Positions 38,396-55,157 of a stretch of DNA of 64,000 nt are shown piece by piece. Made by a program: the position numbers and the translations under genes. Position 1 is the first letter of the stretch; every line of letters begins with the position of its first letter. The notes under the pieces are model-generated. The model did no database searches. It saw nothing but the letters and a program-made list of their open reading frames with translations, and was not told the DNA's origin. Source of the stretch: an uncultured Verrucomicrobiae bacterium (GTDB taxonomy: Bacteria > Verrucomicrobiota > Verrucomicrobiia > Palsa-1439); assembly GCA_963842185.1 (NCBI GenBank), contig CAWJFL010000022.1, positions 15,642 to 79,641 of the forward strand, read 5' to 3'.

Positions 38396-40147
38396 ATGAT
38401 CCGTCGCTGCCTCCCGTGGCTTGCCGTGGCACTGATCCTCGGCGTCGCGCTGGCATTGATGTGGCGACCGATGTGGGAGGAGACTGCCACCACGGACGAA
38501 ACAGCATTCCAGGGCGCCGGCTACTCCTACTGGCAGGGCCACCGCTACTATCTCAACGTCGAGCATCCACCCCTGATGCAGCTCTGGAGCGGTCTGCCGC
38601 TGACGTTCCTCGACGTAAAATTGCCCGCCGACGCGGAGTTGACCTTCGGAGACACGAACCAGGCCGTTTCGTCGACCCTGACCCAAGCCTGGGACTTTCG
38701 CATGGGAACAAACGCCGAGACACTGACCGCATCGGAGCGTTTCTACCATTATCCGGCACTGGAGACCGGGCTGTTTGGCCGGGCGTTGGTGTACGGCGGC
38801 GCAAACGACGCGGACAAACTGCTGTTCTGGGGGCGCTTCATGCAGGCGCTGGTCATGCTGGCGACAGGCTTGGTGGTGTTCCTGTGGACGAAATCACTCA
38901 GCAACACGACCGGCGGACTGTTTGCCCTCGCCGCATGGAGCTTCAACCCCATTGCCCTGGCTTACGGACATCTGATCATCACCGACCCCGGCATCACTTT
39001 GATGATCACGCTGGCGGTCTGGATGCTCTCCCGCTTTCTCAACTCGCCCCGCCCGCAAACGGCACTGGTCGCGGGAATCGCTTTCGGCGGCGCGCTATTG
39101 ACGAAACACACCGCAATCATTCTGATTCCGATGTTTGGCGTGCTCACGGTGGTCGCGTGGTGGAAGCAACGGCGCTCGATTCGCTCGGACTCGTTCCGGA
39201 GTCTCTTCGCCAACCTCTGCCTCGCCGGCGTGGCGGCATGGGCGACCGTTAACTTGTTTTATGTTCCGCACTGGTTGCCGCCGCCGCTGATCTCACCGGA
39301 CGACGCCCAACATCTTCACATTCCAGCGTGGTTTGTCCGTCTGAGGTGGCTGTTGGTCCCGCGAGACTTTTTCAAGGGATTCACGATCATGCTCCTCCAC
39401 GTGGTCAACGGCCACCACGCCTACCTGCTCAGCGAATGGTCGGACAACGGCTGGTGGTATTACTATCCCGTGGCCATTCTCGTGAAGACGCCGATAGCGC
39501 TGCTGCTCCTGATAATTTCGACCGTGGCGATGGCCTTGTGGCGAATCCGTCGATCGAGCTTTGTCGAAGCGGCTCCCTTGATTGGCGCTCTCACGTACCT
39601 GGCGTGCGCGATGACGAGCAAAGCCAACATCGGCATTCGTCACGTCTTACCGATGTATTCGCTCCTCGCCGTCGTGGCCGGAACCGAATGCGGCCGCGCG
39701 CGTGTGCGCGATCAACTCGTCGGTTGGCTGCTCGTCGCCTGGCTGTTGGTAGCGGCGCTCGTGGCCCATCCCGATTACATTGCCTACTTCAACGAGATCG
39801 TTGGCGGTCCCGCCAACGGCCAGGACTATCTGGTCGATTCCAATTTCGATTGGGGCCAGAACGGCAAAGCCCTGAAGCAATGGCTCGAAGCCAACCACGT
39901 CACCCATATCTACCTCGACTACTTCGGCACCGGCGCAGCCATTCGATACCTCGGCATACCCGCCGACTTCGTCAAACCAGAGCAGGTCCCGAAACTGCGC
40001 GATGGCTATCTGGTCATCTCCGCCACCCGCCTGATGCTGCCGGAATACCGGTGGTTGCGAGAAAATCACAAGCCGCTGACGCGAATTGCCAACACGTTGT
40101 TTGTCTACGTGTTGCCGCCTTCGTCACCCCAGTCCCCGCCGAAATGA
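38396..40147 (+). CDS. ArnT/PMT-like (GT-C) polytopic glycosyltransferase, paralog 1
   Basis: ATTDE first-loop motif, EHPPL, many TM helices, GWWYYYP, NIGIRH, DSNFDWGQ. Confidence 0.85.
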   Translation: MIRRCLPWLAVALILGVALALMWRPMWEETATTDETAFQGAGYSYWQGHRYYLNVEHPPLMQLWSGLPLTFLDVKLPADAELTFGDTNQAVSSTLTQAWDFRMGTNAETLTASERFYHYPALETGLFGRALVYGGANDADKLLFWGRFMQALVMLATGLVVFLWTKSLSNTTGGLFALAAWSFNPIALAYGHLIITDPGITLMITLAVWMLSRFLNSPRPQTALVAGIAFGGALLTKHTAIILIPMFGVLTVVAWWKQRRSIRSDSFRSLFANLCLAGVAAWATVNLFYVPHWLPPPLISPDDAQHLHIPAWFVRLRWLLVPRDFFKGFTIMLLHVVNGHHAYLLSEWSDNGWWYYYPVAILVKTPIALLLLIISTVAMALWRIRRSSFVEAAPLIGALTYLACAMTSKANIGIRHVLPMYSLLAVVAGTECGRARVRDQLVGWLLVAWLLVAALVAHPDYIAYFNEIVGGPANGQDYLVDSNFDWGQNGKALKQWLEANHVTHIYLDYFGTGAAIRYLGIPADFVKPEQVPKLRDGYLVISATRLMLPEYRWLRENHKPLTRIANTLFVYVLPPSSPQSPPK

Positions 40148-40260
40148 TTTTCGTGACCGAATCGACCAGCCTGCGAGCGCGGAGTCACTGACGGTGTCCG
40201 ACTGGGGCGGCTTCACAAAAGGCTCGTCGTAACAACGGGTTTGCCCTATGAATTTCCACC

Positions 40261-41991
40261 ATGAAAGTTCGGTGGATGCCGTGGCTTCTGGCAGGATTGC
40301 TGTTGGCGGTGATGGTCGGGCTGCTGCTGGGTCCGATCCGCCAGGACAGCGCGACGGTCGATGAGACATCGTTCCAAAGCGCCGGGTACAGTGACCTGGA
40401 GGGGTACAAATTCTATTTTGACCCCGAGAGCCCGTCGTTGTCCCAGATCTGGCCGGCCGTACCGTTGTTGTTCATGGACGTAAAACTCTCCGACGCCGGG
40501 AAAGCCCTGCTGGATCGGCAGGCGGGATACCCCTGGACCGTGCCGTGGTATGGCGAACCGGCGGCGGTGCAATCCCTGTTCCCGCAAGGCCGCAACAGTT
40601 GGTATTTCTGGCCGAAGCCCGAGGCGCAAATCTTCGGTCAAATCCTGGTCTATGGAGGCCAGAACGACGGGGAGACGATGATGTTCGCGGGACGAGTCAT
40701 GCAACTGTTCGTCACGATGGCGCTGGGCGTATTGATATTCGTCTGGACCCGCCGGGCTTCACAAAACGATCTGGCCGCGCTTGTCGCGTTGGCGCTCTGG
40801 GTATTCAACCCCAACGCGCTGGCGTACGGGCACATCATCACGACCGATATCAACGGGGCGTTGGCGATTCCCCTGGCGGTGTTTCTGTTCACGCGGTTCC
40901 TCCAGCAACCCAGCGTGAAGACCGCGGCGGTGGCGGGTGCCGGCCTCGGGTTCGCATTCCTGATGAAGTTTAACACGCTGTCTCTCGGGCCCATCTGCAT
41001 TGTGCTGGCGGCTTGGTTTTGGAAGAACCTGAAGGCCGCCAAACAGCCATGGATCAAACCGGCGCTCGCGATGGCCGCCGCAGCCTGGCTGGTCGTCTTG
41101 CTTGGCTATTTTCCGGTGTGGTCGCCCGCCCCATCGATCTCGACCGAGCAGGCGTCCGTCCTCGGCGTTCCCGGCTGGTTCCAGGCACTTCGACCGCTGC
41201 TTATCCCGCGGGATTTCTTCAAGGGCGTGGCGCTGGTATTGGGCCACTCACAAGGTGGACACGAAGCCTATTTTCTGGGCGAATGGTCGAAACAAGGCTG
41301 GTGGTATTATTTCCCCGTGGTCTTCGCCCTGAAATCGCCCCTGGCCTTTCTCGTGGCCCTGCTGATCGGGATCGGCGTTGCCGCGACCCGTTGGAAAAAG
41401 CTCGGTCTTTATGAAAAAACTCCCTGGATCGCCGGTGCCGCGTATTTCGGCCTCGCGATGACCAGCAGCATCAATATCGGAGTGCGTCATCTGCTGCCGG
41501 TGGTTCCGCTGGTATGCGTGGGCGTGGGCTGTTCACTGGCCCGAATCGAGAGGCGGGCGGCCCGATACGCCGTGATTGCCTTGGTGGCGTGGGAGGCGGT
41601 CGTGGCGGTGGCGGTTTACCCGTGTTTCCTGCAGTTCTTCAACGAAGCCGCCGGTGGCGCTTCCAACGGCTACAAGTATGCGCTGGATTCCAACTTCGAT
41701 TGGGGACAGGACGCCAAACGGCTGAAGAAATTCCTCGAAGACCGTGGCATCACGCACATTTACCTGGATTACTTCGGGACACAATACAGCATCGAGTACC
41801 TCAAGATCCCGAACACCCGCGTGAGCGCGGACCAGGCGCGACAGATCAAGGATGGATGGCTTGTGGTTTCCGCGTCGGAACTGATGCGGCCGGAATGGGC
41901 CTGGCTCCGTGAATCGCGGGAACCGACCGCGCGCGTGGCCGACACACTGTTCGTCTACCAAATCAGCGCGCCGACAATCCCCGCGCAATGA
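40261..41991 (+). CDS. ArnT/PMT-like (GT-C) polytopic glycosyltransferase, paralog 2
   Basis: ATVDE motif, GWWYYFP, NIGVRH, DSNFDWGQ, HIYLDYFG; same layout as paralog 1. Confidence 0.85.
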   Translation: MKVRWMPWLLAGLLLAVMVGLLLGPIRQDSATVDETSFQSAGYSDLEGYKFYFDPESPSLSQIWPAVPLLFMDVKLSDAGKALLDRQAGYPWTVPWYGEPAAVQSLFPQGRNSWYFWPKPEAQIFGQILVYGGQNDGETMMFAGRVMQLFVTMALGVLIFVWTRRASQNDLAALVALALWVFNPNALAYGHIITTDINGALAIPLAVFLFTRFLQQPSVKTAAVAGAGLGFAFLMKFNTLSLGPICIVLAAWFWKNLKAAKQPWIKPALAMAAAAWLVVLLGYFPVWSPAPSISTEQASVLGVPGWFQALRPLLIPRDFFKGVALVLGHSQGGHEAYFLGEWSKQGWWYYFPVVFALKSPLAFLVALLIGIGVAATRWKKLGLYEKTPWIAGAAYFGLAMTSSINIGVRHLLPVVPLVCVGVGCSLARIERRAARYAVIALVAWEAVVAVAVYPCFLQFFNEAAGGASNGYKYALDSNFDWGQDAKRLKKFLEDRGITHIYLDYFGTQYSIEYLKIPNTRVSADQARQIKDGWLVVSASELMRPEWAWLRESREPTARVADTLFVYQISAPTIPAQ

Positions 41992-42045
41992 TCGTTCCCT
42001 GCGCTGGCCTCGCCCGGTTCGTCGAGGCCGATGCGGACACCGGCA

Positions 42046-43527
42046 TCACGCCCCACGAGCGGCCGCGCGGGGAGATCCCGGTCGGTGGGCGTTGCCAATC
42101 TCCGGCGCCACCTCCGAGGCGGGGAGCTTCTTCCAAATCGTCCACGCATCATCCGCGCACTTGGCCAGGATCAACCACAACGGTGTCAGCATCACAAACG
42201 TGAACCGTTCCATGGCGATCTCCAACGCGGGCAGCGTGATGTCCCAACGGGAAGCCAGGAATACGCAGGAGATTCCGATGGCGTGAATGACAAATACGAC
42301 CAGCAGACATACCCACGGGGCACGCCATACCGAGCGGTTGACAAGCAGGCAGAACACGAGGATCGGCCAGAGAAAATTCCATTTTGGCAAGTGAACCTGA
42401 TTGTTCCAGTTAACGGCGTTGGCGAACAACACCTGTATCAACGCCGGAATCTGGCCCCAACGGATCGCCGAGAGACTGACCCCGCTAAAATCCCAGCTCC
42501 AATCCTTGATGCCGCGCTGAAACAGCAACCACGGCAAGGCCCAGATCACGGCGATGACCGCAAACACGACGAGCTGGCCGAGCAGCCGCTTCCAATTCGA
42601 TCGCTGGGCGACAAATATGTAAACGCCTCCGGCACACAACAGCGCCGCAAAAATAATCTGCCCTTCCTGTTTGGTAAATAGCGCGCCCCCCATCAGAAAC
42701 GCGGACAGCCATAGTGAGTCACGGCGCTGATGGTTCATCCAATCGAACATGCCAAACAACGAGGCACCGAATATCACCATCAAGGTGACGTCCGATTGGC
42801 CGCATTCGGCGTAGTGAACCAGAGCGGGGAGCGACGCCATGATCGCCGTGACCGTGAGTGCGACCGTACGGGCAACGTACCGGCGAAGCGTCCAGTACAT
42901 GAGGGTGCTGAATACAATCAGATTCACCGGGTTGAGAATCAACATGCCCAAATCGTCCCAGCTTCCCAAAACCGTGCACACCCAGGCGTACATGAACGGC
43001 CAGAGCAACGGATAATTGGGATGGGAGAACGCGTACTCCGGTTTGTAGAAGTAGTCCGAGGTCTTGACGGTGCTATAAAACAGGACTTTGGCCTTGATGC
43101 CCCAGACGCAGACGCCGTCCCAGTCGTTCAGAGGCGCCAGCAGACTGGCCAGCGTGCGCGCACCAAGGCTGAGAACAATGATGACGAGTAACAGCCACTC
43201 GAACTCCGTGAGCCGCTGCGCTGGTTGCCGGGCGTTGGCCCCCGCCTGACAGAATTTCCGCGGCGAAACGCGACGCAATCCGGCCGCAATTATGAGGCTG
43301 ATCATCACGAGCGACGTGATGACAGCCGTGTCGAGAAACACCCCGAAGTACGAGAGCAGGAACATGGGCATGCCGAGCGCCGCCAAGCCCAGCGGATAAC
43401 AATAGGCCATCCGCTCCCAGCGGGCATAGTACTCCAGGTCTCGCACGATCGCGCAAAACACCGCCGCGCCGGCGGCGAAAATCACGGCGATGGCAAATAA
43501 TTCAAAGGGCAGGTTGTTGAGTGGCAT
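42046..43527 (-). CDS. Polytopic membrane protein, probable GT-C glycosyltransferase
   Basis: More than 10 TM helices; NDWDG..VWGIKAK loop, HPNYPLL, FTKQEG. Confidence 0.7.
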   Translation of the reverse strand: MPLNNLPFELFAIAVIFAAGAAVFCAIVRDLEYYARWERMAYCYPLGLAALGMPMFLLSYFGVFLDTAVITSLVMISLIIAAGLRRVSPRKFCQAGANARQPAQRLTEFEWLLLVIIVLSLGARTLASLLAPLNDWDGVCVWGIKAKVLFYSTVKTSDYFYKPEYAFSHPNYPLLWPFMYAWVCTVLGSWDDLGMLILNPVNLIVFSTLMYWTLRRYVARTVALTVTAIMASLPALVHYAECGQSDVTLMVIFGASLFGMFDWMNHQRRDSLWLSAFLMGGALFTKQEGQIIFAALLCAGGVYIFVAQRSNWKRLLGQLVVFAVIAVIWALPWLLFQRGIKDWSWDFSGVSLSAIRWGQIPALIQVLFANAVNWNNQVHLPKWNFLWPILVFCLLVNRSVWRAPWVCLLVVFVIHAIGISCVFLASRWDITLPALEIAMERFTFVMLTPLWLILAKCADDAWTIWKKLPASEVAPEIGNAHRPGSPRAAARGA

Positions 43528-44011
43528 TTGTGTCCTCTGTCTGGGACAACGCCGCGCCAATTCCGGGACGCACTTCCCATACTCGCCCGCCATTCTTGAA
43601 GTTCATCACGTAGCCCACGCCATTGGTGATCAGCCAGCTTTCAGTTGGTTTCTCGTTCCAATTCGCGTACTCCTCGTCCGTGCGGTACAGGCCGTTGGTC
43701 ATCGTCACCCTCACCAACCGCGGATAGAAATAGTACACGCAGTTCCAGTGCACGAGGGGTTGCGGATACATCAGATACATCCGCGCGTTCATCGGGAACC
43801 GTTCCGCAACCGACTTGAATGTGCTCCCGGGCTGCCAGACAACCGCTCGCCGTTCCTCCAGCTTCTTTCCCCACAATACCTCGGCCCGATGAATGGGATC
43901 CCCTAGCCCGACGAAAAACAACGAGACCTGTATGAGCAACGCCAACAGCACCAGGGAAGCCAGGATGCGCTGGGTCATACTGATGGCCGGTTGTGGTTCC
44001 GTCTGACTCAT
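43502..44011 (-). CDS. Membrane-anchored hypothetical protein
   Basis: N-terminal TM helix; overlaps the downstream gene in operon fashion. Confidence 0.6.
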   Translation of the reverse strand: MSQTEPQPAISMTQRILASLVLLALLIQVSLFFVGLGDPIHRAEVLWGKKLEERRAVVWQPGSTFKSVAERFPMNARMYLMYPQPLVHWNCVYYFYPRLVRVTMTNGLYRTDEEYANWNEKPTESWLITNGVGYVMNFKNGGRVWEVRPGIGAALSQTEDTNATQQPAL

Positions 44012-44078
44012 CTGGTTGGCGAGTATACCGGAGGGGTGACGTGCCGGCAATCTTCATCAACCGTAGTACAGGATGCAC

Positions 44079-45548
44079 TCACGGCGTGAGATTGACCGAT
44101 TCATGCCGCCGAAATACGAACACGTTGTTCTCGTTGAGAATCAACTCGTAATTCGTGTTCGTGTAGTAGGACATCACCAAATCGCGGCTGACCGCATCCA
44201 GGGGAAATCTCCGTTCGTTCCCATTCAAAATGATGTAATCGAGATCATACATCTTTTCTTTCGGCCACGTGTCCTGTCGAAGAACCGTGGGATTGAACTG
44301 TTGCATGATCACCGCGGCTTCCCGGTCCGCAAAATGTCCAATCATCGTATGCGGCGCCAGCACGGATTTCGAGGACGGCACCAGTTCACGCGCCTTTTCC
44401 AGCGTCTCGTAAGCGTCCGGGTACCGGTAGTCCTCCAGATTAAACCACAAGGGCCAGCTTCCGATGGACAGTACGCACATCCCGAACGCGAGAATGATGC
44501 GCCCTTCCGTCCAACCAAACTTCTTGTTGAGCCAGCCCGCCCATTGGTTCAGCCCCAACAGGGCCGCCACGCAGAGCATGGCTCCCGTGGTCGGGTTGAA
44601 ATGCCACGCCACCACGCGAAACGCGCTGTCCGGTATCACCAGATTCGTCCCCAAGCTCGGTGCCGCCACCAGCCATCCCCAACTCCCAAAGGGAATCAGC
44701 AGCAACAGCGGCTGCAACATTTCCACCAGATAGATCAACCGGTCGGGACTCGTCAGGATCTCCAGGAAATACTGCGGTCGACGAAGAAGCGTCAGGAGCG
44801 CTTCGCCGGGGGTGTTTCCCAGTTCCCCAAAATAGCTCCCCACGAAATACGCTTTGCCCGCGGAAAAATGCGGGGTCGCCATGTGGAACACAAACGCCGT
44901 ATAGATCATGGCCAGCGCCAACGGGGCAACGCACCACTTGGCGCCGCGCCGCGAAACAAGTGCGTACACCGCAATCCCCACCACCGTAATGAAGATATTC
45001 TCCACGGCGCTCATCGCCAGAAGCACGCAAACCAAAAACCCCCAGAACCTCTTTTCCTCCAGGCACAACAAGGCTCCCATCAGGAACGGCAGCGCAAAGT
45101 GTTCAAAGTGGATCTGATTCACGTGATTGGTGACGACGGAGGGGTAAAACAAATACGCGACGGTCATCAAGGACGCCGCCCTCAGGTCCCCCGTGACGCG
45201 CCTCGCCAGACAAAAAAATACGAGTCCCGAGACGGAGATCATCAGGGTTTGCACGAGGAACAGCGTATAGGCGCTCGGTGCGAGCGCGAACACGGGCACG
45301 AATAGCAGCATCACGTAGGTCGCGTGAATCCCCAGATGGCTCATCCCCATATATGTCGAGTAAAAGAGCCGTCCGTGGATCGTGTGCCAAAAGGCGTTGA
45401 CCAGAATCGCCGTGTCCCCACTGTTGGAATTCATCGCCACGAATTTCCGACAGGCCAGTGCGAAAAAGACCAGACTGTAGATCGCGAAAAACACCCAGAT
45501 GGATTTTGGAATCGAGGGGAACCATCGACGTCCCTTGGGGGTATCCAT
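44079..45548 (-). CDS. DUF2079-like membrane protein (predicted GT-C)
   Basis: GDTAILVNAFW, HLGIHA, FHFEHF-like QIHFEHF, many TM helices, C-terminal periplasmic domain. Confidence 0.75.
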   Translation of the reverse strand: MDTPKGRRWFPSIPKSIWVFFAIYSLVFFALACRKFVAMNSNSGDTAILVNAFWHTIHGRLFYSTYMGMSHLGIHATYVMLLFVPVFALAPSAYTLFLVQTLMISVSGLVFFCLARRVTGDLRAASLMTVAYLFYPSVVTNHVNQIHFEHFALPFLMGALLCLEEKRFWGFLVCVLLAMSAVENIFITVVGIAVYALVSRRGAKWCVAPLALAMIYTAFVFHMATPHFSAGKAYFVGSYFGELGNTPGEALLTLLRRPQYFLEILTSPDRLIYLVEMLQPLLLLIPFGSWGWLVAAPSLGTNLVIPDSAFRVVAWHFNPTTGAMLCVAALLGLNQWAGWLNKKFGWTEGRIILAFGMCVLSIGSWPLWFNLEDYRYPDAYETLEKARELVPSSKSVLAPHTMIGHFADREAAVIMQQFNPTVLRQDTWPKEKMYDLDYIILNGNERRFPLDAVSRDLVMSYYTNTNYELILNENNVFVFRRHESVNLTP

Positions 45549-45656
45549 GCCGGTAACCGTAACAAAATCACCCAGCACTGGAAACGTTTTTTTGTGATTC
45601 GGGAAAATGCCTTGCCAATCCCTGCGCCCCTCGCTAGGTTTCGGTGCAATGTCCCT

Positions 45657-46379
45657 ATGGTCGAAGGCAAAACCCTAGTCGTCGTTCTTCCCGCCTACGA
45701 GGCAGCCAAAACCCTTGAACGCACGGTCTCAGAGATTCCGCAGCAGATTGTCGATGAAATCATCCTGGTCGACGACGCCAGCCGCGACCATACGGCCCAG
45801 ATTGCACGGCACCTGGGATTGCGCACGATTGTGCACCAGCGAAACCTCGGGTACGGCGGAAACCAAAAGACCTGCTACCGTGAAGCCCTGAATCGCGGGG
45901 CCGAGATCGTCGTCATGCTGCATCCCGACTACCAATACTCTCCCCGGTTGCTGGGTGCCATCGCCTACTCCGCCGCCAGCGGTCACTACGATGTCGTGCT
46001 GGGTTCCCGCATTCTGGCCCAAAGCGCCGTCACCGGCGGCATGCCGGTCTACAAGTACATTTCTAACCGCATCCTGACGTTCCTCCAGAACGTGATCATG
46101 AACCAAAAGCTTTCCGAGTATCACACGGGATATCGGGCCTTCACGCGCCGCGTGCTCGAAACCCTGCCACTCGAGAGCTACTCCAACGATTTCGTCTTTG
46201 ACAATCAAATGCTCTGCGGCGCCATTGCGGCCGGATTTCGCGTCGGAGAGATTTCGTGCCCGACACGCTACTTCTCCGAAGCGAGTTCCATCAACTTTCG
46301 TCGCAGCGTCGTCTATGGCCTCGGCTGCCTGCGGTGCGCCTGGCAAAACAACCGCTGGCGCCACCCCCACAAACCATGA
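45657..46379 (+). CDS. GT2 glycosyltransferase (polyprenol-phosphate glycosyltransferase-like)
   Basis: VLPAYEAA, VDDAS.D, NLGYGG, HPDYQY, SEYHTGYRAF. Confidence 0.9.
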   Translation: MVEGKTLVVVLPAYEAAKTLERTVSEIPQQIVDEIILVDDASRDHTAQIARHLGLRTIVHQRNLGYGGNQKTCYREALNRGAEIVVMLHPDYQYSPRLLGAIAYSAASGHYDVVLGSRILAQSAVTGGMPVYKYISNRILTFLQNVIMNQKLSEYHTGYRAFTRRVLETLPLESYSNDFVFDNQMLCGAIAAGFRVGEISCPTRYFSEASSINFRRSVVYGLGCLRCAWQNNRWRHPHKP

Positions 46380-47287: not shown

Positions 47288-47314
47288 CCGGCTCGCTCGA
47301 TACACCGATATCCG

Positions 47315-48088
47315 TTACAACGGGTTGGCGGCCACCTTCGTGTACCGCGCCCGCAAGCTGATGAACTGTCGGCCGGGACTGATCTTCCACTTGTACAACA
47401 GGAACCGCGCTGTCAACGTGAGTATCTTCAGACCGTACACGACGCTGGCTGTAAAGCTCGCCGACGACGCCTCGGGAAAATACCGTGTCGGCACGCCGAT
47501 CTCCGCGATACGGAACCGTGCCGCCACGACCTGGGCGATGATCTCCTGGTCGAAAATGAACCCATCGGAATCGATCGAGTAATTGACCGACTCCAGGACC
47601 TCTTTGCGAAACGCCCGATAGCCCGTGTGATATTCGGAGAGATCCAACCCGAACGTTGTGTTCTCCACCCAGGTCAGAAACCGGTTGGAGAAGTATTTCC
47701 ACCACGGCATCCCCTGTTGCAGCGCCGTACCGCCCTTGAGCCGTGAACCCAGGACGACGTCCGCCTCTCCCTTGTTGATCGGTTCCACGATCTGCGGCAC
47801 GAGGCGGGGGTCATATTGATAATCCGGATGCACCATCACCACGATGTCCGCACCCGCCTTTAACGCCTCCGTATAGCAGGTCTTTTGATTGGCGCCATAC
47901 CCGTAATTCCGATCGTGCATGAAGACTTCCAGGTTCAGCTCGCGCGCAATCTTCAAGGTTTCGTCCGTCGAGCCGTCGTCCACCAAAATCACCGTGCTTA
48001 CCGTGTCCTTGGGCAGTTCCTCGTACGTCATTCGCAGTGTGCGTCCGGCGTTATAGGCAGGCATGACGACGATGACCTTGGGTTTCAT
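47315..48088 (-). CDS. GT2 glycosyltransferase (polyprenol-phosphate glycosyltransferase-like)
   Basis: VMPAYNA, VDDGS.D, NYGYGAN, HPDYQYD, SEYHTGYRAF. Confidence 0.9.
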   Translation of the reverse strand: MKPKVIVVMPAYNAGRTLRMTYEELPKDTVSTVILVDDGSTDETLKIARELNLEVFMHDRNYGYGANQKTCYTEALKAGADIVVMVHPDYQYDPRLVPQIVEPINKGEADVVLGSRLKGGTALQQGMPWWKYFSNRFLTWVENTTFGLDLSEYHTGYRAFRKEVLESVNYSIDSDGFIFDQEIIAQVVAARFRIAEIGVPTRYFPEASSASFTASVVYGLKILTLTARFLLYKWKISPGRQFISLRARYTKVAANPL

Positions 48089-48837
48089 GACGTCTTTCTC
48101 GGCCGGGCCACCGCCACAAATTGGTACCCGAACATCGTCTTCCAGCATCTCGCGACCGCGGCGTTCACCGCGTGCAGGGCTTTCAACCATCCACCGTGGT
48201 AACGCGGCGGCACAACCAACAGCAGCGGCACCGGGGTCGCGACAATCTCCTCCCACTCCAGCCCGGCGTCACGAAGAAATTCCTCGAAGGTATGCAGCGT
48301 GAAAAATCGCAGATGGGTCCGGTCGAGAATTCCACGGTCCGCGTACTCGAACTGGCCAAAAAGCAGGCTCAGCCGAATCCACACATGGGCCAGGTTCGGC
48401 ACGGACACGATCACGCGGCCGTGCGGACACAATGAACGATTGAACCCCCGGAACACCTCCATCGGATTGCGCAGGTGCTCCAGGATGTCGCCGTACACGA
48501 TCACGTCGAACTGCCCGTTTAATCGTGGCAACGGCTTGTCCAAGTCGGCCACAATCATCTCATGGCACTTGTCCTTGCCCAGCGCCGCCAGTTCCGCGCT
48601 GCCTTCCACGCACGTCACTTCGAATCCACGCTCGGTGAATTTCTGCGCGAGCACACCCTGCGCCGAACCGACATCCAGCAACCGGCGCCCCTTGCCTTCA
48701 CCGACCCGGGCCAAAATCACCGAGTGGCTTGAATACGGGTCGCTGATCTTCGATTGGTAGGTAAGCCCCGCCGTCGGATAATACGCGTCGGTATTTGGCT
48801 GGGTCTTGTTCGTCTGACCGCTTTTCCCCACGGACAT
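48085..48837 (-). CDS. Class I SAM-dependent methyltransferase
   Basis: LLDVGSAQG, GDILEHL, SVPN, GILDRTHLRFF. Confidence 0.88.
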   Translation of the reverse strand: MSVGKSGQTNKTQPNTDAYYPTAGLTYQSKISDPYSSHSVILARVGEGKGRRLLDVGSAQGVLAQKFTERGFEVTCVEGSAELAALGKDKCHEMIVADLDKPLPRLNGQFDVIVYGDILEHLRNPMEVFRGFNRSLCPHGRVIVSVPNLAHVWIRLSLLFGQFEYADRGILDRTHLRFFTLHTFEEFLRDAGLEWEEIVATPVPLLLVVPPRYHGGWLKALHAVNAAVARCWKTMFGYQFVAVARPRKTS

Positions 48838-48987
48838 ACGCGTGTAAGGAGCCGCAACACGAATCCAAAGTCAAGCTCGATGATTCCGTCAGTTGCCCAG
48901 CGTTGACTTGAGCCAGCCGCTTGGCTACTCTCCCGCGCCATGACACCGAACCAGTTCGCGGCATCGGATTTGCTTTAGGTACCCGTT

Positions 48988-49740
48988 ATGAAAGGCATCA
49001 TTCTCGCCGGCGGTCTGGGCACGCGGCTTGCCCCATTGACCAAGATCACCAACAAACATCTTCTGCCGATTTACGACAAGCCGATGATTTTCTATCCCAT
49101 CCAGACGCTCGTCGATGCGGGCGTGCGTGACCTGCTCATTGTCACGGGCGGCAATAACGCGGGCGACTTCCTGCGTCTGCTCGGCAACGGTAGTGCTTTC
49201 AATCTACCCCACATCAATTACACCTACCAGGAAGGCGAAGGTGGGATTGCCGACGCACTGCGCCTCGCGGAACACTTCGCCGACGGCGAGAAGATCGTTG
49301 TCATGCTGGGCGATAACGTCATCGAGAAGGACATTCGCGCCGGCGTCGCGGCATTCCGCAAACAAAAGCGCGGCGCCCGCGTCTACCTGAAGGAAGTGGC
49401 CAATCCCCGCGCCTACGGCGTGGCCGAATTACGCGGCCAGCACATCGTCAGCATCGTCGAGAAACCCAGTCATCCAAAATCCAACCTCGCGGTGATCGGC
49501 ATTTACATGTACGACCCCGCCGTCTTCGACATCATCCGCACCTTGAAACCGTCCGGCCGCGGCGAGCTCGAAATCACCGATGTCAACAATGCCTACATCA
49601 AGCGGCGCCAACTGTCCTACGACGTCCTCGACGGTTGGTGGGCCGACGCCGGCGCCTCTCATGAGAAACTTTTGGAAACCAGCCTGCTCGTCGCCCAACG
49701 TGACGGCATGAAATTTAGCGTCTCGCGAGGAAAGAACTGA
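48988..49740 (+). CDS. rmlA: Glucose-1-phosphate thymidylyltransferase (short form)
   Basis: GIILAGGLGTRL.P, KHLLPIYDKPM, LGDN, RGELEITD. Confidence 0.9.
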   Translation: MKGIILAGGLGTRLAPLTKITNKHLLPIYDKPMIFYPIQTLVDAGVRDLLIVTGGNNAGDFLRLLGNGSAFNLPHINYTYQEGEGGIADALRLAEHFADGEKIVVMLGDNVIEKDIRAGVAAFRKQKRGARVYLKEVANPRAYGVAELRGQHIVSIVEKPSHPKSNLAVIGIYMYDPAVFDIIRTLKPSGRGELEITDVNNAYIKRRQLSYDVLDGWWADAGASHEKLLETSLLVAQRDGMKFSVSRGKN

Positions 49741-50744
49741 TGCGCGTCCTCGTCACCGGCGGCGCCGGCTTCATCGGCTCGCATTTCGTGAAGTTTGCAT
49801 TGCGAGCCCATCCGGATTGGCACGTCACCAATCTCGACAAGCTCAGCTACGCGGGCAATCTCGACAACCTGACCGATCTCGCCGATCCCACTCGCCATCA
49901 ATTCGTCAAGGGCGATATTGCCGACCACGAATTGGTCACCAAGCTCTGGAGTCACGGGATCGATATCGTCGTCAATTTTGCCGCCGAGACGCATGTGGAC
50001 CGTTCGATCCTGTGGGCCGATGATTTCATCAAGACCGACGTGCTGGGCGCGTTCACGCTCCTCGAAGCCGCCCGCCAATTCGGTGTGAAGAAGTTCATCC
50101 AGGTTTCGACCGACGAAGTCTACGGCAGCATCGCCAGCGGCAGTTTCACGGAAGAATCCCCCCTCAACCCCCGCAACCCCTACTCCGCCAGCAAAGCGGG
50201 CGCGGACCGGCTCGCCTATGCGTATTTCACCACGCATAACGTGCCCGTCACGATCACCCGCTGCTCGAACAACTTTGGCCCCAACCAATACCCCGAAAAA
50301 TTCATACCGCTGTTCATCACCAACGCGCTTGAAAGCAAACCGCTGCCGCTGTACGGCGACGGCCGCAATGTCCGTGACTGGATTTACGCCGAAGACCACT
50401 GCGCGGCCATTGATTTCCTCATTACCCACGGCAAGACAGGCGAGACATACAACATTGCCGGCGGCAACGAGGTCGAAAATATCGAGATCGCCCGCGCCAT
50501 CGTCCGCAAGCTGGGCAAGCCCGAGACGCTAATCCAACTCGTCAAGGACCGGCCCGGCCACGACCGACGGTATTCTCTCGATGCGAGCAAACTGGCCACG
50601 CTCGGTTGGCGCCCCAACCGCGATTTCCCCCACGCGCTCGACGAGACGATTGACTGGTACGTCCAGAACGAGTCGTGGTGGCGCAAGATCAAGAGCGGCG
50701 AGTTCAAAAAGTATTACGCCGCCCAGTACGGCTCGCGGCTGTGA
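49740..50744 (+). CDS. rmlB: dTDP-glucose 4,6-dehydratase
   Basis: VTGGAGFIG, NLDKLSYAGN, AAETHVDRSI, STDEVYG, YSASK, NNFGP.Q.PEK, DRPGHD.RY. Confidence 0.95.
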   Translation: MRVLVTGGAGFIGSHFVKFALRAHPDWHVTNLDKLSYAGNLDNLTDLADPTRHQFVKGDIADHELVTKLWSHGIDIVVNFAAETHVDRSILWADDFIKTDVLGAFTLLEAARQFGVKKFIQVSTDEVYGSIASGSFTEESPLNPRNPYSASKAGADRLAYAYFTTHNVPVTITRCSNNFGPNQYPEKFIPLFITNALESKPLPLYGDGRNVRDWIYAEDHCAAIDFLITHGKTGETYNIAGGNEVENIEIARAIVRKLGKPETLIQLVKDRPGHDRRYSLDASKLATLGWRPNRDFPHALDETIDWYVQNESWWRKIKSGEFKKYYAAQYGSRL

Positions 50745-51628
50745 AAGTTCTTCTCACAGGAGCAGCGGGATTCATCGGCTCGCATATCGCACGCGAGTTG
50801 GTGCGCCAGGGCCACGAAGTGCACGCCCTCGTGCTGCCGGGAATCGACCGCTCTCGCGTCGCCGACGTGGCCGCATCGCTCCGCTTCGTCGAAGCCGATT
50901 TGCTGGCTCCTTCCGTCGCCCTTCCGGATTGGCGGTTTGACCTGTGTCTGCACCTTGCGTGGTACGTCGAGCCGGGCAAGTATCTTCACGCCCCGCAAAA
51001 TCAGGACTGGGTCGATGCCAGCTTGCGACTGGCGCGGCGGCTCAAAGAGGAAGGCTGCCAACGTTTCGTTGCGGCGGGAACATGTTTCGAGTATGCGACG
51101 AGCGACCCGCCTCAGAGCGAGTCCACGCCGACGGCCCCCTCCACCCTGTACGCGCAGTCGAAGCTGAACCTCTTTCAGGCACTTCCTTCGGTCGGGATCG
51201 ATTTTGCCTGGGTGCGCTTCTTCTATCAGTACGGACCGTACGAGGACCCGCGGCGGCTCGTGCCCGTCGTAATCAACCTGCTCCGGCAAGGGCAGGAGGC
51301 CAAGCTCGTGACGGGAGACCGCATCCGCGATTATCTTCACATCGAGGATGTCGCCAGCGCCGTCTGCGCCGTGGCCCAGAGCAAGCTGACCGGCGCCGTC
51401 AACATCGGCAGCGGCGTGCGAGTAACCGTACGCGACATCGCGTTGAAAATCGGCGAGTTGCTGGAGCGGGTCGATTTGATCAGGCTCGGGGCGTTCCCCG
51501 ATTCCCCAACTGAACCCATGCACCTCCTCGCCGACAACACCAAGCTGCGCGAAGGCACCGGCTGGAAACCCCGGTACAACCTCGAAACCGGCCTCCGCCA
51601 GACCATTGACTGGTGGAAGAGCCGGTAG
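50741..51628 (+). CDS. NAD-dependent epimerase/reductase (SDR)
   Basis: LTGAAGFIG, AAGTCFEY, YAQSK, RFFYQYGP; GTG start overlaps the rmlB stop. Confidence 0.88.
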   Translation: MKVLLTGAAGFIGSHIARELVRQGHEVHALVLPGIDRSRVADVAASLRFVEADLLAPSVALPDWRFDLCLHLAWYVEPGKYLHAPQNQDWVDASLRLARRLKEEGCQRFVAAGTCFEYATSDPPQSESTPTAPSTLYAQSKLNLFQALPSVGIDFAWVRFFYQYGPYEDPRRLVPVVINLLRQGQEAKLVTGDRIRDYLHIEDVASAVCAVAQSKLTGAVNIGSGVRVTVRDIALKIGELLERVDLIRLGAFPDSPTEPMHLLADNTKLREGTGWKPRYNLETGLRQTIDWWKSR

Positions 51629-51643
51629 ACGACGGGTTGTGCA

Positions 51644-54073
51644 CTACCGATTGCGGATCGCCAACCCCAGTCCCACAAGGAAAGCCGCGATACTGACTAC
51701 CGCTGCTACCGCGTACACTCGCGGCGGTTGATAGCGCAGGAGAATCGTGTGGGCGCCGGCCGGTAGCTCCATTCCCATCAGGCCACAACTGACCCGAAAG
51801 ATTTCGGTCGGCTGGCCGTCGATTTCCGCGCGCCAGAATGGATAGTAGCTCTCGGCAATGACCGCCAGACAGGCCGACGGCGCCGTCACCTGGATGCGCA
51901 CCAACTGCGCGTTCTCCCGCGTAAGTTGCACGTTTTCTAACGACACAGGCGCTCCCGCGTTGATCGGCGGAAGCGGCGAACTGTCCTCGCCATACACCTG
52001 CTCATACTTCCGCGCTTCGTCGGCGGGGACCTCACCGGGGCTTGCCTCTTTCGCCTGTACCAGCGGCCAGTTCTTTGCCGAGAGTGCCAGCGCGATGGAT
52101 GCCGACTTGTGGACGTCGCCGGCGTAGAGACAGGCGCGCGCGTACGCCGTCACGTAAGGCCGCGCCGTATCATTGCGGAACACCACGAAATCTTCATTCG
52201 TCGATACGGCGGCATAGTTGCGCGACAGATCACTCAGGACCATCTGTGGCTGGGGAGCGCCGGGGCTGGCCATGTCAAAAACGACATAGCGCGCCCCCAT
52301 CAAGTCGAGGAAGGCCCGATTCATGACGATGCGCCGATCCGACAACTGGATGATCGCCTCTTGGTTCAACAGTCCTGTCCCCAATGGGCACATCCAGTTG
52401 TAAAAGGCCTCGTAGACCTGCGGTTTGCCGCCCCACATTGGCCCGAGCAGGTGAAAGTATCGTCCGGAAACCGAGTAGGTCTTAACCCAGTCCGGATCCT
52501 TTTCGAGGGATTGGTACGCCGCCTGCAAATTCGTCAACGTGTGAGTGGGAACGCCATTGTCCCACGTCGGTTTTTGATACGGCCAGTAGTCAAGCAACAA
52601 CAATACGCCGAGGCCCGCCACAATCTTCGGCGCGTGCGCCCGCCATTTCCGCGCCACAAGCACATCCGTAACGAAGAATCCCGCCAGCATCGGCCCCAGA
52701 AATACCGCGGGCGTATCGTAAAAGACATACGGCGCCCGGATTTCCTTGAAGTAGGGCAACGTTGCCAACCATTGGAAGCCCGGCAGAAACAGGAAAATCG
52801 CCAGCGCCACACCGGCAATCACCCACTTGCGTCCCGTGGTCAGTTTTCGTCGGCAGAACACCACTAGGAACGCAATGCTCACCAATAGCCACGCGAACGC
52901 GACTCCGGACACCTGCTGCGACGAAAGCGCCTCCCAGGTCGTCCAGTTCGCTGTCCACACGCTGCTCGGTCCGGTTGCCAGCATTACACTCGCCAGCAAC
53001 GCTGCCACGAAGAACCAAAACGCCCGTCGCTCTACCCGTTGTGTGTTCCACAGCACGGTGGCCACAAGAATCGCCAGCAATACAATCCCCATGTATTTCT
53101 CGGGAGAATCCATGCCCAGCGACATCAAGCGCTGTACCTGGTCGTATTCCGCCTGACTGTTGACACGCCCGCCGCTGGCCTGAATTCGCGACATCACAAC
53201 AGCGACAAGGTTACTCGTGGCCGAGCCGTTGCGGTCCACCAGACCCAGCAGACTCTTGAAGGAGTAGGTCTTCTGCCAACCCGCCAACGGATCGCCGTAA
53301 AACAGCTTCACGTAGCCCGATTCGACAAAGCTCGGCACCAGCATCCACGACCCCATCGCCAACCCCATGGCCGCCAACAAGCCGCACATACGGGCGGTCC
53401 CCCGCCACTGTTTGCGTCGGGGCCACAGCCAATACAGTGCGTAGCCGAACAGGAACAGGAACACGGTGAAAGCCTGCTTGTTGTCCGTCCACCACGCCAG
53501 TACAGCGACGAGCGCGCACAAAAACGTATCCCGAAATCTGTTCGCTTCCAGGGCCCGCGCCAGCGTCAACCACAGCAGCGGCATGAACGGAAAGAACAGG
53601 ATGATGGTCATGTGCTCGGCGCCCGCCGCGCGGATGATCTGTTCCGGGTGCAACAGGAACGCCACCGCTGCCAACGTCGCCCCCCAGTCATTCTTCAGGA
53701 AATGCCACGCGCAACCGTACATGGTCACGGCGCCGGCAAAGATTGCCAGCAGCGCCATCAGCTTGCCGGCGGTGATGAGGTCGGTGAACATCGAGAAGAA
53801 GATCCACGGCACCAGATAGAAGCCACGACCATGGTTGAGGCCGTAGCTCGACCCGCTCATGAAATACGGCGTCCACCACGGCAGGAAATGATGTTGGGAG
53901 ATTTCGCGCTTGATGTCCCATACGCGCGAGGCCGAGCCGCTCAACTCGTGTTCGCTCAATCCCAGCGGCAGCCAGTGAGCGCCGAGCCAGATGCAGTATG
54001 CCAGCGCCACCGCCATCGTGACCCACAACCCGAGACCGGGCCGTTTAGCGCTGAGCGTTGACGACACTTGCAT
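51644..54073 (-). CDS. YfhO-like polytopic membrane protein (predicted GT-C) with C-terminal soluble domain
   Basis: First-loop EHE, PWWTPY..SG, about 12 TM helices, C-terminal ESYYPFWRAEIDG...GAHTILLRY before the final TM helix. Confidence 0.78.
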   Translation of the reverse strand: MQVSSTLSAKRPGLGLWVTMAVALAYCIWLGAHWLPLGLSEHELSGSASRVWDIKREISQHHFLPWWTPYFMSGSSYGLNHGRGFYLVPWIFFSMFTDLITAGKLMALLAIFAGAVTMYGCAWHFLKNDWGATLAAVAFLLHPEQIIRAAGAEHMTIILFFPFMPLLWLTLARALEANRFRDTFLCALVAVLAWWTDNKQAFTVFLFLFGYALYWLWPRRKQWRGTARMCGLLAAMGLAMGSWMLVPSFVESGYVKLFYGDPLAGWQKTYSFKSLLGLVDRNGSATSNLVAVVMSRIQASGGRVNSQAEYDQVQRLMSLGMDSPEKYMGIVLLAILVATVLWNTQRVERRAFWFFVAALLASVMLATGPSSVWTANWTTWEALSSQQVSGVAFAWLLVSIAFLVVFCRRKLTTGRKWVIAGVALAIFLFLPGFQWLATLPYFKEIRAPYVFYDTPAVFLGPMLAGFFVTDVLVARKWRAHAPKIVAGLGVLLLLDYWPYQKPTWDNGVPTHTLTNLQAAYQSLEKDPDWVKTYSVSGRYFHLLGPMWGGKPQVYEAFYNWMCPLGTGLLNQEAIIQLSDRRIVMNRAFLDLMGARYVVFDMASPGAPQPQMVLSDLSRNYAAVSTNEDFVVFRNDTARPYVTAYARACLYAGDVHKSASIALALSAKNWPLVQAKEASPGEVPADEARKYEQVYGEDSSPLPPINAGAPVSLENVQLTRENAQLVRIQVTAPSACLAVIAESYYPFWRAEIDGQPTEIFRVSCGLMGMELPAGAHTILLRYQPPRVYAVAAVVSIAAFLVGLGLAIRNR

Positions 54074-55157
54074 GGGATTGATGTAAGAGTTGCCAGGCGG
54101 CGGTTTCCACGGGTTCCAGCGGCAGGTCACGGACGCAGGCGTAGTCAAGCCCGGCCGGACAGCGTAACGGTCGGCTCGAATAATAGAAGCAGGGGCTGCA
54201 GGGCAACCCGCGGCTGACGATGACGTGCGGCGTTTGCCAGGGACGCACCCATGTCGGATTGGTCGGTCCGAAGACCGCCACGCAGGGCACCTTGCACGCC
54301 GAGGCGACGTGTAACAGCCCGGAATCATTGCCGACGAACAACTGGCACCGTCGGATCACCGCAGCCACCGCGCCGATCGGCAATCGACGCGCCACCGCTA
54401 CGAAACCGGGCTTCTTGTGCACCGCGCTGCTCACCTTCTCGTCCAGTGGCCCTTCGAACAGCACAAACCGCATGGAAGGCTGGCGTTCGCTCATGCGTTC
54501 CATGAACCGCGCGAACTGGGTCGGCGGCCAGCAGCGATTCTGCTGGTTCTTCATGGGATTACAACTCGGGTGAATGCCGACCAACGGCGACGCATCGGTC
54601 AGTCTGTGCTCACTGAGAAACTCGTCGGCCAAGCGGGTCGATTCCGGAGTGCTCCGAAACCACAACTTATCGGCCAGCCCGTGGACGTCCTCACCGATCA
54701 AGTGCGCCGCCCAGCGCAGGTTCTCCTCCACCACGTGCAGTTTCGGATCCTCGTCGATCACGGTCTGGTTCAGGCCGGGCAGGTTGGTGTGGGGTTGCCG
54801 CTGGTAGCGGAACCCGATCCGTTCCCGCGCGCCGATGAAACGAGCCACCGCGTTGTACTCAACCCGATTGTGGGGGTACGCCAGAACGCTCACGTCGAAT
54901 CGCTCCTGACGCAACCGCCACACGTCCCGTAGAACCCTGGCCCTGGCGCTCCCCAGAAAATCCACGAACCGCACATCGTCGGTGAACGCCTGCTCGCGCA
55001 AGTATTCGGCGACACTTCCGAACATCGTCAGGAGCGTGAGACGGAATCGCTCGGGCTCAGCCGCCAACGCGGCGATCGACGGCGACGCCATGATCACGTC
55101 GCCGAGACCCGAAAGACAAAAAATCAATACTCTTCGTTGCCGTTGGTCGGACTGCAT
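54045..55157 (-). CDS. GT9 glycosyltransferase (heptosyltransferase-like)
   Basis: GLGDVIMASP, GNDSGLLHVA, VFGPT, C.PC. Confidence 0.9.
   Translation of the reverse strand: MQSDQRQRRVLIFCLSGLGDVIMASPSIAALAAEPERFRLTLLTMFGSVAEYLREQAFTDDVRFVDFLGSARARVLRDVWRLRQERFDVSVLAYPHNRVEYNAVARFIGARERIGFRYQRQPHTNLPGLNQTVIDEDPKLHVVEENLRWAAHLIGEDVHGLADKLWFRSTPESTRLADEFLSEHRLTDASPLVGIHPSCNPMKNQQNRCWPPTQFARFMERMSERQPSMRFVLFEGPLDEKVSSAVHKKPGFVAVARRLPIGAVAAVIRRCQLFVGNDSGLLHVASACKVPCVAVFGPTNPTWVRPWQTPHVIVSRGLPCSPCFYYSSRPLRCPAGLDYACVRDLPLEPVETAAWQLLHQSHASVVNAQR

Follow-up and report, generated by a model that had tools for sequence, protein, structure and literature searches.

We analysed a window of 64,000 nt from an uncultured Verrucomicrobiae bacterium (lineage Palsa-1439; assembly GCA_963842185.1, contig CAWJFL010000022.1, positions 15,642 to 79,641 of the forward strand) and focused on a cluster of glycan genes at positions 38396-55157. 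Positions refer to this window unless another contig or locus is named. The cluster is bounded by argG (37095-38312, minus strand) and by a gene for a hybrid sensor histidine kinase (55268-57745, minus strand), followed by pepA. Our data suggest, with a probability of roughly 60%, that it represents a mosaic cell-surface glycan locus: sugars linked to polyprenyl monophosphate are predicted to be transferred outside the cytoplasm by several GT-C glycosyltransferases which share lipid-linked 6-deoxyhexose donors.

Genes were called from a listing of open reading frames (ORFs) combined with Pfam and NCBIfam scans, and starts were refined by reading the translations. Several longest-ORF starts lie too far upstream, and the starts used here were moved downstream. 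An earlier sequence-only reading of this DNA had listed two ArnT/PMT paralogs, a third GT-C candidate, DUF2079 and YfhO-like proteins, two GT2s, a GT9, two methyltransferases and an RmlA/RmlB/short-chain dehydrogenase/reductase (SDR) set; the Pfam and NCBIfam scans recovered all of them where it had placed them. It took these genes as one multi-step system of extracytoplasmic glycosylation. This class of mechanism is supported by GT-C folds, GT2s of the dolichol-phosphate-mannose synthase (DPMS)/ArnC type, RmlB and the lack of Wzx, Wzy and ABC genes, but the unity and the novelty of the system were overstated. In the following, G000 denotes the genome of the window, C7, C10, C11, C22 and C23 are contigs of G000, other G numbers stand for genomes of relatives and L numbers for related loci.

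A conserved core and an exchanged flank

The locus joins a core conserved in the family to strain-variable cassettes at a fixed chromosomal site, and close relatives differ in what lies between gt2b and argG, this part having been swapped. Two samples were used for synteny. 61 relatives were searched with the DUF2079 protein, and all cluster proteins were then compared with 17 regions by tblastn. Public genomes were then scanned with an alignment of the YfhO-like protein, which yielded 43 further loci and ~60 related loci in all. Nearly all of the 43 are titled as metagenome-assembled genomes (MAGs) of uncultured Verrucomicrobiia or Verrucomicrobiota, from SPRUCE and Stordalen peat, Danish soils and ELA lakes. 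The synteny on which the sequence-only reading had staked its proposal is present in relatives. The family-wide order is purC-pepA-histidine kinase-(GT9 or GT4)-YfhO-like / SDR-RmlB-RmlA / (mt2-gt2b) / variable part / argG.

In genomes of the same genus the YfhO-like gene (51644-54073, minus strand), the SDR gene (50741-51628, plus strand), rmlB (49740-50744, plus strand), the rmlA-like gene (48988-49740, plus strand) and gt2b (47315-48088, minus strand) as well as the histidine kinase gene, pepA and argG share 86-98% identity with their counterparts in the window, gt2b itself 95-98%. The methyltransferase gene mt2 (48085-48837, minus strand) is always found upstream of gt2b and is 73-85% identical in the genus, while rmlB reaches 81-99% across the family. 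An ortholog of the YfhO-like protein (at least 53% identity) is present as a single copy in 17 of 18 sampled genomes of the family. Among 133 other sampled genomes of the class, eleven, from three families, match it at 23-29% identity. YfhO-like proteins of 46-47% identity, without any of the genes that surround them in this locus, also occur in L084, L085 and L086, titled Enterobacteriaceae or Burkholderiales MAGs, and point to mis-binning or horizontal transfer. The GT9 gene (54045-55157, minus strand) lies upstream of the YfhO-like gene in most related loci (38-98% identity) and a GT4 gene takes this place in others; the adjacency of histidine kinase, (GT9) and YfhO-like gene is likewise kept in most of them. 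According to Pfam the kinase has seven transmembrane (TM) helices and PAS, HisKA, HATPase and receiver domains. It lies upstream of the GT9 gene on the same strand and is possibly a regulator of the locus.

Despite flanks of 86-98% identity, the DUF2079 protein (44079-45548, minus strand) and the homolog of gtc1/gtc2 are only 52-56% identical in same-genus genomes, DUF2079, with 53-56%, being the most variable gene of the locus. Next to argG, tblastn finds a counterpart of gtc2 (40261-41991, plus strand) with 52-61% identity in G003, G007, G009, G015 and G008. In contrast, gtc1 (38396-40147, plus strand) is an extra paralog not seen in G003, G007, G009 and G015. Presence among relatives also varies for gtc3 (42046-43527, minus strand), gt2a (45657-46379, plus strand), mt1 (46376-47287, plus strand) and the GT9 gene. 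G003, for example, is 89-96% identical overall and yet has neither gtc1 nor mt1, and its gtc2-family gene is 55% identical, whereas G007 is devoid of GT9, gtc3 and gt2a. The G+C content of the accessory genes is 0.56-0.59, compared to 0.595 for the genome.

A 550-bp gap in the earlier gene inventory turned out to hold an overlooked conserved gene (43502-44011, minus strand). Its product of 169 aa has one N-terminal TM helix and a predicted periplasmic domain of ~130 aa. There is no Pfam or NCBIfam match, and among 1.84 billion proteins it is represented by 16 clusters with 42-65% identity; the protein is restricted to this lineage. The motifs LWGK, YFFYPR and MTNG.YRTDE.YA.WNE are conserved, as is the position, always between DUF2079 and gtc3 (G000, G015, G031 and L073). 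In relatives the DUF2079 gene usually lies directly downstream of a Dpm1-like GT2 gene and is followed either by the small gene and gtc3 or by a gene for a ~550-aa polytopic protein without Pfam match. The latter family replaces the small protein and gtc3 behind a DUF2079 type of 31-35% identity, e.g. at L041:5295-6974, L042:5286-6971 and L046:14073-15776 (all minus strand) and at L047:13062-14600 and L048:13013-14656 (both plus strand). It is probably another unannotated GT-C, as far as can be predicted.

Further genes in the variable parts of relatives encode sugar C-methyltransferases, FkbM methyltransferases, DegT aminotransferases, additional nucleotidyltransferases and SDRs, a Gmd-like dehydratase, an HldE-like heptose-activating enzyme, GT4s, more PMT_2 proteins and unannotated polytopic proteins. 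The HldE-like enzyme (e.g. L039:3383-4969, plus strand), found in several relatives, is a bifunctional heptose kinase/adenylyltransferase with reversed domains, the adenylyltransferase coming first. In G015 a PEP-CTERM protein is encoded beside the locus.

This architecture is that of a surface-antigen diversity locus; it is unusual in that the exchangeable genes encode GT-Cs and lipid-sugar synthases. Instead of the single 17-kb system proposed earlier we thus find a conserved core with strain-variable cassettes, organised in six units of alternating orientation; one of the cassettes, gt2a-mt1, is duplicated elsewhere. Window positions 45580-47407, which comprise gt2a-mt1, 77 bp upstream and the last ~30 codons of gt2b, are repeated at C11:4159-5987 with 97.2% nucleotide identity. 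The C11 locus has the order YfhO-like, GT2, SDR, gt2a copy, mt1, nadE, FkbM methyltransferase, Wzy_C, GT4, GT4, methyltransferase, Wzx. Its gt2a copy is split across two frames near C11:4615-4625 by a frameshift or an assembly error. Hence such cassettes move between glycan loci, on C11 beside a classical pathway.

The genome (4.18 Mb, 88% complete) contains ~72 PMT_2 matches in a six-frame search, from which 0.29 are expected by chance per 17 kb. Three PMT_2 proteins together with DUF2079 and YfhO-like proteins in one cluster therefore represent an enrichment. Five GT-Cs are nevertheless less exceptional than first thought. Genomes of the genus have between 19 and at least 48 PMT_2 matches, compared to 0-13 in most other families of the class (two outliers have 23 and 26). 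Moreover, C7:418000-461000 harbours a denser GT-C array with ~17 co-oriented paralogs of 535-1180 aa that are 50-75% identical. The five scanned members of this array all have a long series of TPR repeats at the C-terminus, in four of them together with a PMT_2 match, similar to the eukaryotic TMTC O-mannosyltransferases.

Five polytopic proteins of GT-C type

The cluster had been credited with up to five GT-C-type proteins, and this number holds: each of the five polytopic proteins is assigned to the GT-Cs either by Pfam or by its predicted fold. For gtc1 and gtc2 the assignment comes from Pfam, for gtc3 from its PMT_2-type family, for DUF2079 and the YfhO-like protein from structure models.

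The products of gtc1 (583 aa; PF13231 with 50.5 bits, PF02366 with 29 bits) and gtc2 (576 aa; PF13231 with 36.1 bits) are PMT_2/ArnT-like and 43% identical to each other. gtc1 has a C-terminal periplasmic domain of ~120 aa. The gtc3 product (493 aa), encoded by the last gene of the DUF2079 operon, matches PF13231 exactly at the cut-off (26.1 bits) and reaches 30.1 bits in the six-frame PMT_2 search. Of its homologs, 39 of 45 carry PF13231, eight of them PF02366 in addition, and one is named ArnT family glycosyltransferase. The hhalign probability between gtc3 and the gtc1/2 family is 24-34%. None of the three proteins contains TPR or MIR domains. Beyond the PMT_2 domain, phmmer and profile searches against PDB sequences, including ArnT and Pmt1/2, show no homology of gtc1, the gtc1/2 family, gtc3 or the gtc3 family to characterised ArnT (GT83) or PMT (GT39) enzymes.

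Acidic residues following the first TM helix deserve attention because the catalytic residues of GT-Cs are located there. D34-E35 directly after this helix is invariant in seven gtc1/gtc2 homologs. In gtc3, D135 is nearly invariant and D137 invariant. D45 of the DUF2079 protein, likewise located behind the first TM helix, is retained by 34 of 38 sequences and two more have E there, while H75 and E183 are invariant. The YfhO-like protein has E43 and D53 behind this helix; both, as well as E153-H154, show no variation among 65 sequences.

Sequence searches against the PDB with gtc1, gtc3, DUF2079 and the YfhO-like protein, using single sequences as well as profiles, gave nothing usable. Hence a fold search was applied. 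Models of the YfhO-like and DUF2079 proteins were built with AlphaFold2 (AF2) from alignments of database homologs and compared using Foldseek. The model of the YfhO-like protein (809 aa) has a pLDDT of 88 and a pTM of 0.89. Its top 30 matches are without exception GT-Cs, headed by AftD (E-value 3.4e-9) and followed by STT3, ArnT, DPY19, PglB and EmbA/B/C. The AF2 model consists of an N-terminal GT-C membrane module, a periplasmic beta-sandwich (residues ~530-781) and a final TM helix. The beta-sandwich itself shows weak, partial Foldseek matches to glycoside hydrolase entries (agarase, endoglycoceramidase) with E-values above 0.1. By sequence, PF09586 is hit with 29.2 bits (cut-off 28.5) in the C-terminal 70 residues only, corresponding to model positions 763-831; relatives carry PF09586 and/or PF10131 (PTPS_related).

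The DUF2079 protein (489 aa; PF09852 with 168.5 bits) was modelled with a pLDDT of 92.9 and a pTM of 0.91. All of its top 22 matches are GT-Cs, starting with ALG12 (5.6e-7, TM-score 0.54), then PglB, ArnT, STT3, DPY19, ALG9, AftA and Pmt1/2. The similarity of both models to mycobacterial enzymes is at the level of the fold, with 10-14% identity. Flippases, polymerases or transporters, which would have been an awkward result for the original proposal, are not among these matches, which are exclusively GT-C; in both searches transporters and flippases occur below the significance range only. A literature search revealed no functional study on DUF2079/PF09852, and nothing was found on GT-C genes in Verrucomicrobia.

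Cytoplasmic enzymes, export genes and the predicted donor

The products of gt2a (240 aa; PF00535 with 80.9 bits) and gt2b (257 aa; PF00535 with 77.2 bits) are 53% identical, and both are without TM helices. The solved structures nearest to gt2b are the dolichol-P-mannose synthase of Pyrococcus furiosus (5mlz, 4.5e-11) and ArnC (9hwj, 9bhc and 8vxh; ArnC at 3e-6), in agreement with the Dpm1/ArnC-like GT2s which the sequence-only reading had invoked as makers of polyprenol-phosphate sugars. Within NCBIfam, gt2a and gt2b come closest to PpgS, AglJ and dolichyl-P hexose transferase, without reaching any of the equivalog cut-offs. The two enzymes belong to the DPMS/ArnC/PpgS group of GT2s, which at family level argues for polyprenyl-phosphate glycosyltransferases. 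As every equivalog cut-off is missed, we infer the lipid-phosphate acceptor and the dTDP-sugar donor.

RmlB is, judged from its sequence, a bona fide dTDP-glucose 4,6-dehydratase which passes the equivalog cut-off (TIGR01181, 454.8 bits vs 365.1). The RmlA-like sugar-1-phosphate nucleotidyltransferase is of the short 250-aa form (PF00483 with 183 bits) and matches glucose-1-P thymidylyltransferases best in NCBIfam, with 228-231 bits and below the cut-offs. The SDR (295 aa; PF01370 with 121 bits), an NAD-dependent epimerase/reductase, matches no equivalog, RmlD being hit with 29.7 bits vs 224, and is a candidate 4-ketoreductase to complete a dTDP-6-deoxyhexose. From the RmlABCD set for dTDP-L-rhamnose the cluster contains neither RmlC nor RmlD, in addition to an RmlB above and an RmlA-like protein below the equivalog cut-offs. 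Therefore the sugar is assigned simply as a 6-deoxyhexose. The rmlA-like gene and rmlB are the sole close copies in the genome. The single RmlC of the genome is encoded outside the cluster at C10:144234-144737. In its surroundings (C10:138027-148352), annotated by eye, are a 727-aa GT-C-like protein, a GtrB-like GT2 with C-terminal TM helices, an mt1-like zinc-ribbon methyltransferase, a GT4-like protein and GT9-like fragments. The triad of GT-C, GT2 and zinc-ribbon methyltransferase thus recurs in this genome.

Both methyltransferases are of class I. The mt1 product (303 aa; PF13489 with 92.5 bits), dependent on S-adenosylmethionine (SAM), begins with a Cys4 zinc ribbon and ends in a TM helix, which fits a methylation at the membrane surface; the mt2 product (250 aa; PF13489 with 71.6 bits) is soluble. 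GT9 is a cytoplasmic glycosyltransferase of the heptosyltransferase family. The match is one of the domain level only (PF01075 with 108.4 bits, cut-off 22), since the equivalogs of heptosyltransferases I/II/III of lipopolysaccharide (LPS), i.e. WaaC, WaaF and WaaQ, give 60-70 bits vs cut-offs of 135-185.

Neither in the cluster nor in the polytopic and other recurrent gene families of the ~60 related loci did we find Wzx, Wzy, an ABC gene or an initiating phosphoglycosyltransferase. The lack of Wzx/Wzy and of an ABC exporter had been noted before for the cluster and extends to its relatives. A classical O-antigen cluster, already disfavoured by the sequence-only reading, is rejected on these grounds, as phosphoglycosyltransferase, Wzx, Wzy (or Wzm/Wzt) and ABC genes are all missing from the locus. 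Elsewhere the genome has five Wzy_C and three to four Wzx genes. It also contains a single GtrA-like gene (C11:402107) and a single UPF0104 gene (C23:109079). mt1 and the 169-aa protein were considered as flippases encoded in the locus and rejected, having one TM helix each.

Proposed mechanism, alternatives and related systems

According to our model of a mosaic glycan locus, the RmlA-like enzyme, RmlB and the SDR would make a dTDP-6-deoxyhexose, which belongs to the D-series provided that the 4-keto intermediate is directly reduced by the SDR. gt2b and the paralogous gt2a would load the sugar onto undecaprenyl phosphate on the cytoplasmic side of the membrane. SAM-dependent methylation necessarily precedes the flipping of a sugar; mt2 and the membrane-anchored mt1 would O-methylate it while it is cytoplasmic, either as nucleotide sugar or as lipid-linked sugar. 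A flippase encoded elsewhere in the genome would then move the donor across, with the single GtrA-like and the single UPF0104 protein as candidates. Outside, the YfhO-like enzyme would transfer the sugar to a conserved acceptor of the envelope. DUF2079, together with the small periplasmic partner and gtc3, as well as gtc1 and gtc2 would add further residues at strain-specific positions. The locus would thereby act in a serotype-like manner, its variable enzymes being GT-Cs and synthases of lipid-linked sugars where other loci vary in Wzy and cytoplasmic glycosyltransferases.

Several points weigh against this model. The GT-Cs of the locus have no relative in the PDB by sequence, and hhalign comparisons among the five GT-C families give weak links (0.4-76% probability) that are suggestive at most. 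Both GT2s are devoid of the TM helices of GtrB, ArnC and DPMS and score far under every equivalog cut-off. A flippase gene of the GtrA/GtcA, SMR, MATE or Wzx type is not found within 38396-55157. Given six predicted transcription units that alternate in strand and the uneven presence of the accessory genes among relatives, there is no need for these genes to act on a single product. As the rmlA-like gene and rmlB are sole copies and RmlC is located elsewhere, their conservation could reflect a general supply of dTDP-sugars instead of a link to the YfhO-like protein. Finally, L092 has YfhO-SDR-RmlB-RmlA directly beside argG and no GT2.

For the acceptor, we lean towards LPS core or O-chain or another envelope polysaccharide rather than protein. 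This is favoured by the beta-sandwich of the YfhO-like protein with its weak partial glycoside hydrolase matches, by the predicted co-transcription of the YfhO-like gene with a GT9 of the LPS heptosyltransferase family, by the heptose and 6-deoxyhexose pathways in relatives and by PMT_2 proteins free of TPR and MIR domains. In a system of protein O-glycosylation, which we regard as unlikely, the PMT_2, DUF2079 and YfhO-like enzymes would use lipid-linked 6-deoxyhexoses to glycosylate Ser/Thr residues of proteins in the periplasm or the outer membrane, comparable to the actinobacterial Pmt/Ppm1 or the streptococcal Pgf enzymes. The Pfam families PMT and PMT_2 are indeed defined by protein O-mannosyltransferases, PMT_2 is expanded genus-wide, often in a TMTC-like design of GT-C and TPR that suggests protein substrates, and the PEP-CTERM protein adjoins the locus in G015. 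However, besides the features just named, no candidate target protein is conserved in or beside the locus, and those YfhO enzymes that have been characterised use teichoic acids as acceptors (PMC5836110).

Rather than decorating a ready-made glycan, the five GT-Cs might build an oligo- or polysaccharide rich in (methyl-)6-deoxyhexose on the outer side of the membrane from one or two polyprenyl-P donors, as in the assembly of mycobacterial arabinan and mannan. The number of GT-Cs per donor synthase would fit this (three per one in G007 and G009, five per two here), as would the missing phosphoglycosyltransferase, Wzx, Wzy and ABC genes in ~60 related loci. Moreover, the top structural matches, AftD for the YfhO-like protein and ALG12, ALG9 and AftA for DUF2079, are all chain-building enzymes. 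Yet fold matches do not separate decorating from polymerising enzymes, no primer or anchor step was identified except possibly GT9, the classical Wzx/Wzy loci of the genome could supply a backbone, and the variable gene content fits a side-chain seroconversion equally well. Such an assembly line appears doubtful to us. Still less is to be said for a mere recombination hotspot that gathers unrelated glycan cassettes with separate products: ~72 PMT_2 matches in 4.18 Mb, six alternately oriented units, the gt2a-mt1 duplication in a different glycan locus on C11 and the differing presence of gtc1, mt1, gtc3 and GT9 among near relatives would be expected from it, but the core order is kept across the family, the order GT2, DUF2079, second polytopic protein recurs, and the variable genes of ~60 loci are functionally coherent, all being sugar-nucleotide, methyltransferase, GT2 or GT-C genes.

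The mosaic glycan locus we favour resembles several known systems, and what had been proposed as an undescribed system is rather an elaborated form of the established logic of GT2, flippase and GT-C, with its own flippase missing. In the CsbB/GtcA/YfhO systems of Bacillus subtilis and Listeria monocytogenes, which glycosylate lipoteichoic and wall teichoic acids (PMC5836110, PMC7389260, review PMC8035078), a cytoplasmic GT2 makes a C55-P-sugar, with which a YfhO-type GT-C glycosylates a polymer of the envelope on the outer side of the membrane. The same steps are predicted here from the genes. In contrast, the host is Gram-negative, the PF09586 match covers only the last 70 residues with 29 bits, and the predicted donor is a dTDP-derived 6-deoxyhexose in place of UDP-GlcNAc. 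The locus also has four additional GT-Cs, another GT2 and two methyltransferases and lacks a GtcA-type flippase.

O-antigen seroconversion in Shigella and Salmonella (GtrA/GtrB/Gtr*, e.g. GtrC) and the pentofuranose three-component systems that founded GT136 (PMC11127046) also combine a synthase for undecaprenyl-phosphate-sugar with a highly divergent, serotype-specific GT-C, which is mirrored by the divergence of DUF2079, gtc2 and gtc3. Those are three-gene, often phage-borne modules with an own flippase (GtrA or MATE) which decorate an O antigen made by Wzx/Wzy or ABC pathways, whereas here we see a fixed chromosomal site, no flippase, a sugar-nucleotide pathway and up to five GT-Cs. From the three components, the GT2 synthase (at family level) and the GT-C transferase are present while a dedicated flippase is absent from the locus. 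The locus is therefore not a strict member of the three-component class.

In Rhizobium, galacturonic acid (GalA) is added to the core of LPS and to lipid A by several GT-Cs, RgtA-D, which draw on a single dodecaprenyl-P-GalA donor, made with RgtE. As in this system and in the modification of lipid A by ArnC/ArnEF/ArnT, one polyprenyl-P-sugar synthase would feed one or several PMT_2/ArnT-type GT-Cs, there acting on LPS in the periplasm, and gt2b is detectably similar to ArnC. Unlike there, gtc1-3 have no sequence-level match to ArnT structures, the sugar pathway is different and an LPS acceptor is hypothetical. The assembly of mycobacterial arabinan and mannan by Ppm1, decaprenylphosphoryl arabinose (DPA), AftA-D, EmbA-C and MptA-C (PMC3485146, bioRxiv 10.1101/2019.12.22.885152) likewise uses many GT-Cs on one lipid-monophosphate donor. 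A Ppm1/PpgS-like synthase without TM helices is a common feature, and AftD is the best structural match of the YfhO-like protein. Phylum and envelope are different, however; a polymerisation is hypothetical for the present locus, and the similarity is one of fold with 10-14% identity.

Enterobacterial O-antigen loci have rml genes conserved at one end, a serotype-specific middle part and fixed housekeeping flanks. The cluster resembles them in its fixed site (argG ... pepA/purC), in the conservation of rmlA/rmlB and in an exchangeable central part whose G+C content is slightly below that of the genome. In contrast, the replaceable genes encode GT-Cs and lipid-sugar synthases instead of Wzx, Wzy and cytoplasmic glycosyltransferases, and an initiating phosphoglycosyltransferase is lacking.

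In a bolder version, to which we give little credence, the argG-pepA locus would be the serotype-determining locus of the family. It would build, and not just decorate, a surface glycan rich in methylated 6-deoxyhexose outside the inner membrane from polyprenyl-monophosphate 6-deoxyhexoses, strains differing by swapped cassettes of GT-C and lipid-sugar synthase (DUF2079 with small partner and gtc3, or DUF2079 with the 550-aa protein) and not by Wzy and cytoplasmic glycosyltransferases, a Gram-negative counterpart of the mycobacterial arabinan/mannan logic. To our knowledge, polyprenyl-monophosphate 6-deoxyhexoses have not yet been described as a class of donors. If the favoured model of a mosaic glycan locus is true, the uncharacterised DUF2079 family would gain a role as GT-C glycosyltransferase coupled to an own Dpm1-like synthase, and the lineage-specific YfhO-like enzyme would be a near-universal envelope feature of an abundant family of peat and soil Verrucomicrobiia. 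Surface-glycan diversity could then be encoded mainly in GT-C enzymes of the periplasmic face at a fixed chromosomal hotspot. Glycoengineering would gain a new type of donor in a polyprenyl-phosphate 6-deoxyhexose, which a membrane-anchored methyltransferase might methylate while it is on the lipid. The practical stakes are modest since none of the organisms has been cultured and mechanisms of this general kind are known already.

Some minor features complete the annotation. A scan of the locus for promoters and terminators gave the same counts as shuffled sequence and is uninformative. Stop and start codons overlap between gt2a and mt1 and between mt2 and gt2b (4 bp shared by the end of mt2 and the start of gt2b), and the GT9 gene overlaps the start of the YfhO-like gene. 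An ORF of 145 aa at 43641-44078 (minus strand), which overlaps the small conserved gene in another frame, was discarded as spurious because of its odd composition and the lack of a family match and of a TM helix. The same holds for the long opposite-strand ORFs at 44073-45305 (plus strand), 46313-47305 (minus strand) and 57748-59136 (minus strand), all without matches. Apart from the cluster, a further PMT_2 gene is located at 2-1708 (minus strand) and runs off the start of the window, and a 756-aa paralog of DUF2079 is found ~12 kb upstream of the window at C22:3388-4248 of G000.

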